Source: Rhodopila sp.
GTDB taxonomy: Bacteria > Pseudomonadota > Alphaproteobacteria > Acetobacterales > Acetobacteraceae
DNA: 64,000 nt
Assembly: GCA_050010355.1 (NCBI GenBank)
Contig: JBEKLE010000007.1
Span: 3,976-67,975, forward strand
Direction of reading: 5' to 3'
Shown here: positions 50,843 through 52,044 of the stretch, piece by piece
How the letters are laid out: the number at the start of each line of letters is the position of its first letter
Numbering within the stretch: position 1 is the first letter of the stretch
Translations under genes and position numbers: made by a program
Notes under the pieces: generated by a model
Seen by the model: the letters and a program-made list of their open reading frames with translations, nothing else
What the model was told of the DNA's origin: nothing
Databases searched by the model: none

Positions 50843-52044
50843 ACCGCTTCGCCTTCCTGACCCAGGCCGCCCACAGAAGCCGTATGCCGGTCGCCCTGCT
50901 GAGCGGCTTCCTCGGCAGCGGCAAGACCACGCTCGTCAACGCCCTGCTGCGTGATCCGCGCATGGCCGGCACCGCCGTCGCGGTCAATGAATTCGGCGAC
51001 GTTCCGCTCGATCGCGACCTGATCGATCACGGCGCCGACAAGACAGTCGTCATGGCGAACGGCTGCCTGTGCTGCAATCTGGCCGGGGACATGGAAGACG
51101 CGGTCATGCGCCTGTTCAGCCGTCGCGAGGACGGTCAGATCCCACAGTTCCAACGGCTGGTCATCGAACCCTCCGGCCTGTCCGACCCGGCGCCGATCGC
51201 CCAGGCCATTCTGCGAAACCCGGTAATGTCCCGCGCCATGCGCCTGGAAACCATCATCACGACAGTGGATGCACTGTTCGCCGAGGCGCAGATGGTACGG
51301 CACCCGGAGACGCGCAAGCAAGTGGCCCTCGCCGATCGTCTGGTGCTCACCAAAACCGACCTCTTATACCAACCCACGATGACACCGACTCGCTGTCGGC
51401 CCCTTCGCGTCATGCCGACGGAGGTCGGCATCCACGCCTTTCCTGCGACTAATCAAACGCATGAGTGGCGAACTGGCGCCCGCCACGAGGATGAAAGGCC
51501 GGTGCCGATGGTTCAATCCCACGGGCCGTTGGCATCAGGCACCGACGCCGTCGACCGGCTGCGGCTGCTCTTGCGAGACCAGAACCCGGCCGCGCCGATC
51601 CTCGTGGCGGCAAATGGCGCGATCGACGCCGCAACGCTGTTCCCGCCTTCTTTCTTCAACCCGGATGGCCCCGCCCCTCCACCCCTCCGGTCGGGCCTGT
51701 TCGCAGAGAATGTCGATCCCGGCCACATCGGGCGCCACGCCGCGGTATCGCTGACGGCCGATCGGCCCCTGGGCTGGCGCACCTTCGACGACTGGTTGCG
51801 CCGGATCAGGATCGGCCACGCCGAACACCTGCTGCGGATCAAGGGCATGCTGGATATCGCCGGGGTCGACGGCCCGGTCGTCGTCCAGGGCGTCCATCAC
51901 GTCCTGAACGCGCCGGTCGAACTGGACGCCTGGCCCGAAGGCCAGCGGCGGTCACGCCTTGTCCTGATCGCCGATCGTGCCACCATCGCCGCGGCGAGAG
52001 AAAGCTGGGCCGCCGCGCTGCCCGCCATGACCGCGAGCAAATAA
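50839..52044 (+). CDS. CobW/COG0523-family G3E GTPase (metallochaperone) with a 57-aa insertion
   Basis: LSGFLGSGKTT, AVNEFG, NGCLCC, IEPSG, LTKTDL, C-terminal LLRIKG..VQGVH; insert LYQPT...GPLA. Confidence 0.9.
   Translation: MNRFAFLTQAAHRSRMPVALLSGFLGSGKTTLVNALLRDPRMAGTAVAVNEFGDVPLDRDLIDHGADKTVVMANGCLCCNLAGDMEDAVMRLFSRREDGQIPQFQRLVIEPSGLSDPAPIAQAILRNPVMSRAMRLETIITTVDALFAEAQMVRHPETRKQVALADRLVLTKTDLLYQPTMTPTRCRPLRVMPTEVGIHAFPATNQTHEWRTGARHEDERPVPMVQSHGPLASGTDAVDRLRLLLRDQNPAAPILVAANGAIDAATLFPPSFFNPDGPAPPPLRSGLFAENVDPGHIGRHAAVSLTADRPLGWRTFDDWLRRIRIGHAEHLLRIKGMLDIAGVDGPVVVQGVHHVLNAPVELDAWPEGQRRSRLVLIADRATIAAARESWAAALPAMTASK
51365..51535. repeat. Family A element, copy 4, in frame within the cobW-like gene
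   Basis: TATACCAACCCACGATGACACCG...CGTCATGCCGACGGAGGTCGGCATCCACGCCTTT...GGGCCGTTGGCAT, 171 bp. Confidence 0.85.

Follow-up and report, generated by a model that had tools for sequence, protein, structure and literature searches.

The question raised by this locus is how a P-loop GTPase came to carry 57 additional residues beside its guanine-specificity motif, and whether the gene has stayed functional with them. The locus lies in a 64,000-nucleotide (nt) stretch (the window) of contig JBEKLE010000007.1, which belongs to a Rhodopila-like (Acetobacteraceae) peat metagenome-assembled genome (MAG) of 8.1 Mb, 832 contigs and 63% GC, and the gene encodes a GTPase of the COG0523/CobW family. The explanation favored by the results described below, with a probability of nearly nine in ten, is that a non-autonomous palindromic mobile element was inserted in frame just after the G4 motif of cobW and is read through as a tolerated, disordered loop.

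The host gene and its motifs were located from the open reading frame (ORF), Pfam matches and the translation, as follows.

50839-52044, forward strand: COG0523/CobW-family G3E GTPase gene, 401 amino acids (aa) including the insert.
50905-50928, forward strand: Walker A motif (P-loop) GFLGSGKT, residues 23-30, intact and invariant in 66 orthologs.
51064-51075, forward strand: CxCC metal-binding motif of COG0523, C76-L-C-C79, intact, with C76, C78 and C79 invariant and the motif aligned to CICC of YjiA.
51349-51360, forward strand: G4 motif TKTD, residues 171-174, intact, with K172 and D174 invariant.

The signature of the COG0523/CobW G3E family was thus complete (GFLGSGKT, CLCC, EPSG as G3, TKTD as G4, and CobW_C), and its motifs were invariant in the 66 orthologs. 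The Pfam cobW profile matched residues 17-178 (1.4e-39, profile positions 1-158 of 180) and CobW_C matched residues 302-394 of the 401-aa protein (5.2e-19). The first of these matches ended exactly at the start of the insert, which begins two codons past TKTD. The closest solved structure, ranked first by sequence as well as by fold, was that of Escherichia coli YjiA (PDB 1NIJ), which has 4 residues where the 401-aa protein has 63.

A sequence-only reading of the window had described a 171-nt repeat segment at 51365-51535, in frame with the gene and free of stop codons. The segment was present as described, with the frame open throughout. The added length of 171 nt also stood, but the coordinates were refined to an element of 168 nt between two flanking trinucleotides of the form TNA.

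51367-51534, forward strand: repeat element proper, 168 nt, with terminal inverted repeats (TIRs) TACCAACCC.../...GGGCCGTTGGCA, delimited by nhmmer and by the end consensus of 71 ends.
51364-51366, forward strand: left-hand copy of the 3-bp target-site duplication (TNA), reading TTA in the window and GCA in the sister lineage, with TCA as the probable ancestral form.
51535-51537, forward strand: right-hand counterpart of that copy (TNA), with TCA in both lineages.
51408-51434, forward strand: core hairpin, a repetitive extragenic palindromic (REP) unit of CGTC type, with a CGTC tag (51408-51411), an 8-bp stem ATGCCGAC, the loop GGAG, GTCGGCAT and a CCA tail.

The 168-nt element and the 3-bp duplication together account for the 171 nt, or 57 codons, that were added. 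By the ORF, the element is translated in frame as part of residues 176-233 (example peptide from these residues, VMPTEVGIHAFPATNQTHEWR), and its GC content at third codon positions (GC3) was 0.67 versus 0.81-0.85 in the flanking parts of the gene. The core hairpin was predicted by RNA folding, and the secondary structure of the whole element was strong (z = -2.2). As had been claimed for it, the segment aligned with intergenic copies at approximately 33765, 35773, 45919 and 55240, and with a copy at approximately 53045; the family extends genome-wide, an iterative nhmmer search of the whole assembly having yielded 146 hits at 128 places, with elements 120-200 nt long. The cobW copy was the best full-length match of the family model (152 bits, model positions 1-171), its ends being TACCAAC...GTTGGCA where those of the family are TACCAAC...GTTGGTA.

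Evidence for the 3-bp duplication came from 39 full-length copies taken from the MAG and its relatives. The consensus of 71 aligned ends was T-N-A followed by TACCA[AG]C[CT]NG, with the reverse complement (...G[TC]TGGTA) at the opposite end, and of the 23 full-length copies with T-N-A on both sides, 16 had the identical trinucleotide on each, as opposed to approximately 30% expected (P = 9e-5). These findings support a 3-bp TNA target-site duplication. A mariner-like TA duplication around an element CCAAC...GTTGG was also considered; it would add 166 nt and break the frame, and TNA was preferred.

Orthologs of the gene had an empty site at this position. Nine same-genus sequences, taken as true orthologs because their neighboring genes are conserved (Amidohydro_2 downstream in the eight whose flanks are long enough, HpaB upstream in three), matched residues 1-176 and approximately 236-401 on adjacent DNA without the 57 aa and had TKTDL-xxx-D... 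at the site (GAC CTC GCG AGC ACC GAT in one example). The insert was also absent from 64 metagenomic orthologs, and no equivalent 57-aa segment was found in either group. In agreement with the sequence-only reading, excision of the segment gives TKTDL-S-GTDAVDRL, which is the spacing of the orthologs. Unrelated additions were noted at other positions in two orthologs, one with a 22-aa insertion in the inter-domain linker (P0054) and one with a 28-aa HESP(M/T/V)G tandem repeat inside the CobW_C domain (P0088); judged from these sequences, the CobW family tolerates insertions at several sites.

The insert was found at the same place in a sister allele, represented by a protein cluster (P0002) of 384 aa and 7 members with contigs from four Joint Genome Institute (JGI) metagenomes and at least one ENA metagenome. 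The two insert-bearing alleles were 91% identical in nt sequence and had both junctions in common, and when insert columns were masked they formed a clade (support 0.99) nested among empty-site sequences. The sister insert was shortened by deletions of 12 nt and 39 nt inside the element, both multiples of three, with loss of 17 of the 57 insert residues. The most economical reconstruction would have TCA on both sides of the ancestral insert and GAC CTC TCA GGC ACC GAC (D-L-S-G-T-D) at the empty site.

Since the insert is common to both alleles, all divergence between them postdates the insertion. The ratio of nonsynonymous to synonymous substitution rates (dN/dS, Nei-Gojobori) between the two alleles was 0.15 for host codons (59.5 synonymous and 28.5 nonsynonymous differences, Fisher P = 9e-18), with values of 0.07 for the G domain and 0.27 for the C-terminal domain. 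The corresponding value for the insert was approximately 0.77, which is not different from 1 (5 synonymous and 12 nonsynonymous differences), and dN of the insert was greater than that of the host (P = 6e-4). These findings indicate that the gene stayed functional with the insert and that the insert peptide is close to neutral.

In an AlphaFold2 model built from an alignment of 66 sequences, the mean predicted local distance difference test score (pLDDT) was 77, with values greater than 90 for the G-domain core and the C-terminal domain and less than 50 for residues 186-226. Residues 176-233 were modeled as coil between a strand at 167-171 (LVLTK) and a helix at 234-248, and the best structural matches of the model were YjiA chains (target-normalised TM-score 0.67-0.71). 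The structure prediction that the sequence-only reading had called for thus shows the insert as a disordered loop linking the G4 strand to the next helix. The 57 aa had also been called a domain insertion; because they are predicted to be disordered, that name is a misnomer. The Rho insert of Rho-family small GTPases occupies the same position in the topology, following the strand of the G4 motif [NT]KxD and preceding the next helix, and the site can therefore accept extra residues in P-loop GTPases, although the Rho insert differs in being an ancient, folded and functional helix of 13 residues that is not derived from a mobile repeat.

The allele in the window was recovered in other assemblies, and the insert in one RNA contig. 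Identical contigs were present in two JGI metagenomes, and contigs of Logan DNA runs crossed both junctions with 0 mismatches (left, 50839-51434; right, 51414-52044), breaking solely inside the high-copy core hairpin. The sequencing runs in which the locus occurs are metagenomes of peat, wetland and soil. A single metatranscriptome contig, 206 nt long and with a depth of 11.9, covered 51377-51582 with 1 mismatch and ran from the interior of the element across the right junction into the gene.

The following course of events would account for these observations. The ancestor shared by two species-level lineages in a clade of Rhodopila-like Acetobacteraceae from peat would have acquired a non-autonomous, 168-nt palindromic element carrying a CGTC-type REP hairpin, by transposition into a COG0523/CobW gene for a metallochaperone GTPase, at a TCA (TNA) target in the sequence that codes for the loop just past the G4 motif. 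Having entered in a stop-free frame, the element would have been read through to give a GTPase with an extra, largely disordered surface loop, presumably with GTPase and chaperone activity retained. The insert would be tolerated, not useful, and would drift near neutrality and shrink by in-frame deletions while the host domains stayed under purifying selection. Mobilisation would probably have been due to a DDE transposase; a 3-bp TNA duplication is typical of some subgroups of the IS5 family in ISfinder.

Several points weigh against this account. Searches of the fragmented MAG for an autonomous insertion sequence whose ends match, covering TIR pairs separated by 0.5-3.5 kb and IS5-type DDE (PF13586) loci, found none, which leaves the TIRs and the TNA duplication to carry the transposition mechanism. 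The MAG and the contigs identical to the 401-aa allele (L014 and L015) may stem from one sample series. The RNA support is a single short contig for which DNA carry-over is possible, and translation of the loop into protein is something that we infer. The dN/dS of the insert is based on just 17 differences, and an insert located two residues from the guanine-reading Asp could possibly have some effect on nucleotide binding or dimerisation.

Of the alternatives, the one that fares best, improbable as it is, holds that the insert has been exapted, with a present function for either the REP hairpin in the mRNA or the retained part of the loop, VMPTxVGIHAFPAT. The loop, near the nucleotide pocket, may serve in client docking or modulate GTP turnover, and the hairpin may be an element of RNA decay or stability, or of translation (pausing), in the hpaB-cobW-amidohydrolase mRNA. 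In keeping with such roles, the core hairpin and its peptide were the best-conserved part of the insert between lineages, with differences just in loop bases, the insert persisted through approximately 9% DNA divergence, and REPs are known to affect mRNA stability (PMC3733652). Exaptation is, however, at odds with the near-neutral dN/dS of the insert and the deletions in the sister lineage, with a His and Cys content that was not kept (4 His and 1 Cys versus 1 His and 0 Cys in the other allele) and with the predicted disorder of the region, and orthologs in nine genomes and 64 metagenomic clusters work without the insert.

Still less likely is inactivation of the gene by the insertion, which would make it a decaying pseudogene with a frame left open by chance. 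A random 57-codon stretch of this composition is stop-free approximately 20% of the time, and several COG0523 paralogs are present in the MAG and could compensate for a loss. Opposed to this are the constraint on host codons since insertion, which was strongest in the G domain, the occurrence of both later deletions in multiples of three with all motifs intact, and the retention of operon overlap and synteny in both lineages.

Post-transcriptional or post-translational removal of the insert, in the manner of an intron or intein, would leave a normal mature protein, but the only features in its favor are a length divisible exactly by three and the strong secondary structure of the element, and it can be given almost no weight. 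Thus, a search of Rfam with the element gave no match, the Pfam search of the 401-aa protein revealed no Hint or intein domain, and the boundaries are not intein-like, the peptide starting with Leu and ending with Ala-Ser, with no Cys or Ser as first residue and no terminal His-Asn. The RNA contig keeps the insert across the right junction, joints skipping the 171 nt were absent from the Logan contigs of every run, and elsewhere the element is an ordinary intergenic repeat. An assembly artifact, to which the fragmentation of the MAG, the tendency of repeats to break assemblies and the breaks of Logan unitigs in the core hairpin might point, is just as hard to credit when both junctions were crossed in independent assemblies from at least six metagenomes, and so are two independent hotspot insertions, given identical junctions and the clade support noted above.

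The in-frame insertion of the element into cobW is a rare event for a family that is otherwise intergenic. Every place occupied by the repeat was screened for an ORF running through it with a coding GC3 signature on both sides. There were 33 stop-free frames through repeat copies with at least 50 aa on each side, and the cobW copy alone passed (1 of the 128 places in the MAG). All of the other through-ORFs were without a coding GC3 signature; they were R/P/G-rich off-frame artifacts, or the real gene started past the element. The same screen of relatives, which covered 153 places in 116 loci, revealed no through-ORF copy with a coding signature. Of the 128 places in the MAG, 124 had at least one open frame, and from this, together with the stop-free chance given above, an occasional in-gene survivor is expected. 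Thus, copies of the family lie essentially between genes, the CobW event being a rare survivor. The search for further in-frame copies that the sequence-only reading had called for therefore produced no other convincing case in the MAG, and its proposal that a repeat family outside Rickettsia behaves like the Rickettsia palindromic elements (RPEs) held for the CobW event but not at the scale of the family.

Searches with the insert peptide were less informative. HMMER comparison with 1.84 billion representative proteins returned just short ORFs on intergenic copies and unrelated low-complexity proteins, a weak test as clustering at 50% identity hides insert-bearing variants, and a region-restricted word search, which was powerless, matched the query alone. 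Units fitting the CGTC grammar were noted in a KdpB gene and in a luciferase-like monooxygenase gene; these were chance matches in native sequence, not insertions.

The intergenic copies of the family in the window that had been named in the sequence-only reading are listed below.

33765-33926, no strand assigned: intergenic copy matching the model on both strands, with two core hairpins tail to tail.
35775-35935, forward strand: intergenic copy with a 55-nt tandem duplication of the core hairpin (D6, 96%).
45919-46054, forward strand: intergenic copy adjoining the stop codon of a small upstream ORF.
55243-55407, no strand assigned: intergenic copy directly past the end of a pobA-like ORF.

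The core motif GTCATGCCGAC-N3-GGTCGGCATCCACG had 7 matches in the window versus 0 expected. In the second of the listed copies, the core hairpin and its tail were tandemly doubled at 35814-35917 (period 55 nt, 96% identity). At 45917-45919 and 55238-55240, the TGA stop of the upstream gene, a small ORF of 79 aa in the one case and the pobA-like ORF in the other, was also the T-N-A flank of the element (TGA directly followed by TACCA...). The repeat thus adjoins, or may supply, a stop codon, and trimming of C termini by the repeat is possible.

A strict scan of the MAG for the CGTC grammar detected 76 units versus 1 in shuffled sequence. The tag was CGTC in 71 and TGTC in 5, the stem was ATGCCGAC in 41, the ten commonest loops were all of 4 nt, and a CCA tail, which the scan did not require, was present in 63. 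Of 25 same-genus genomes, 9 had copies of the family; none of 16 genomes from other families of the class did. Among GTDB species genomes, exact core matches occurred in Rhodopila sp. MAGs, uncultured Acetobacteraceae and Acidisphaera sp. S103, with further matches in MAGs labeled just Alphaproteobacteria or proteobacterium and on two stray contigs in Opitutaceae and Sphingomonadales bins. As a short (<300 bp), multi-copy, non-coding element with TIRs and a target-site duplication, the family has the properties of a transposable element of the miniature inverted-repeat type (MITE). Elsewhere in the same genome (C675:1748-2564), perfect 28-nt inverted repeats that start with the family end (GATACCAGTCGGCGTTTACGCTGACTGG...) surround 817 nt with a cyanase-like ORF; a gene may have been captured here between two element ends, or the inverted repeat may be unrelated.

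The genes on either side of cobW form an operon with it.

49403-50842, forward strand: HpaB-family monooxygenase, upstream operon gene, 479 aa, with Pfam HpaB_N/HpaB matches on the identical locus L014 and synteny in orthologs.
52057-52953, forward strand: Amidohydro_2 metal-dependent hydrolase/decarboxylase, downstream operon gene, 298 aa.

The GTG start of cobW overlaps the hpaB stop codon (GTGA), and the Amidohydro_2 enzyme is likely to be a client of the CobW metallochaperone. Other differences between the two lineages were noted nearby. Between the amidohydrolase and FAD_binding_3 (pobA-like) genes, a PDDEXK_3 (GxxExxY) gene pair at approximately 53236-53812 (L014:5452-5941) was absent from the sister lineage, in which the gap is approximately 200 nt (L016:5064-5262), so this cassette also looks like a lineage-specific insertion. 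Upstream of hpaB, the 401-aa lineage has a HepT-like/NTP_transf_2 (HEPN-MNT) toxin-antitoxin pair (L014:783-1452), in place of which the 384-aa lineage has a 63-aa ORF (L016:1310-1501). Farther along the window, a long, diverged tandem-repeat array with a period of approximately 378 nt and 60-78% identity (families D1-D4) extends from 56700 to 59250 and is presumably a repetitive gene for a large surface protein.

In-frame insertion of palindromic repeats was discovered in Rickettsia, and close to half of the copies belonging to three RPE families of R. conorii are in ORFs (Ogata et al. 2000, 2002, as summarised in PMC10969869 and PMC3733652). The analogy drawn with RPEs in the sequence-only reading holds for cobW. 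Both families are multi-copy palindromic repeats of 100-170 bp, and RPEs and the cobW copy alike lie in frame in a functional gene, add a surface-loop peptide, were kept through speciation and decay slowly. In contrast with RPE copies, which are often in ORFs and have a conserved peptide, those of the present family are in ORFs at the low frequency reported above; the host is a free-living soil member of the Acetobacteraceae with a large genome of 63% GC as opposed to an obligate intracellular bacterium; and the element, unlike RPEs, has clear TIRs and a TNA target duplication.

The analogy extends to the core hairpin. CGTC-tagged REPs, which occur mostly in alpha-Proteobacteria, consist of a CGTC (or TGTC) tag, an 8-9-bp stem beginning with AT, a 4-5-nt loop and a CCA tail, and are without a dedicated transposase (PMC3733652). 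The core described here, with its CGTC tag, 8-bp stem starting with AT, 4-nt loop and CCA tail, agrees with the published description of type CGTC-1. Di Nocera et al. (2013, PMC3733652) listed intragenic GTAG and CGTC REPs in several species and equated the intragenic CGTC repeats of R. conorii with RPE-4 and RPE-6; the link of the present family to these two lies in the common CGTC-REP grammar as given in that paper. Like CGTC REPs, the present family is mostly intergenic, forms inverted dimers and has occasional intragenic copies in an alpha-Proteobacterium, but its REP unit is embedded in a longer element of approximately 168 nt with TIRs and a 3-bp target duplication of its own.

In-frame fusions of MITEs were described as "not unusual" in a 2024 review, and Coxiella QMITEs give similar in-frame cases (PMC10969869, PMC5896051 and PMC2229807 for ERIC, Coxiella QMITE and Anabaena MITEs). 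ERIC, Coxiella QMITE and Anabaena MITEs resemble the present family in being small, non-coding and multi-copy with TIRs and a target duplication, and in occasionally adding peptides in frame. Most documented fusions are, however, C-terminal extensions or concern hypothetical proteins, whereas the present one is internal and adjoins a catalytic motif in an enzyme that is well defined; for it there is also comparative evidence that purifying selection acted once the insert was in place. The novelty is thus smaller than that implied in the sequence-only reading, as REP and MITE insertions in frame outside Rickettsia had already been published (PMC3733652, PMC10969869). What is new is a previously undescribed repeat family in peat Acetobacteraceae, its composite build, in which a CGTC-type REP is enclosed by a MITE-like shell of TIRs and TNA duplication, the location of the insert beside G4 of a COG0523 GTPase, and unusually clear comparative evidence for tolerance and frame-preserving decay after insertion.

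The CobW case reveals no new mechanism, the phenomenon being known already from Rickettsia and other bacteria. It amounts to a natural experiment in which a P-loop GTPase gained 57 residues from a selfish repeat, two positions away from its guanine-specificity Asp, the gene remained under strong purifying selection through a species split, and the insert decayed solely by frame-preserving deletions. It extends the concept of selfish DNA in proteins to a free-living soil alphaproteobacterium with a large genome, links a CGTC-type REP core with a MITE-like element that has a TNA target duplication, and identifies the post-G4 loop of COG0523 proteins as a permissive site for engineering insertions.

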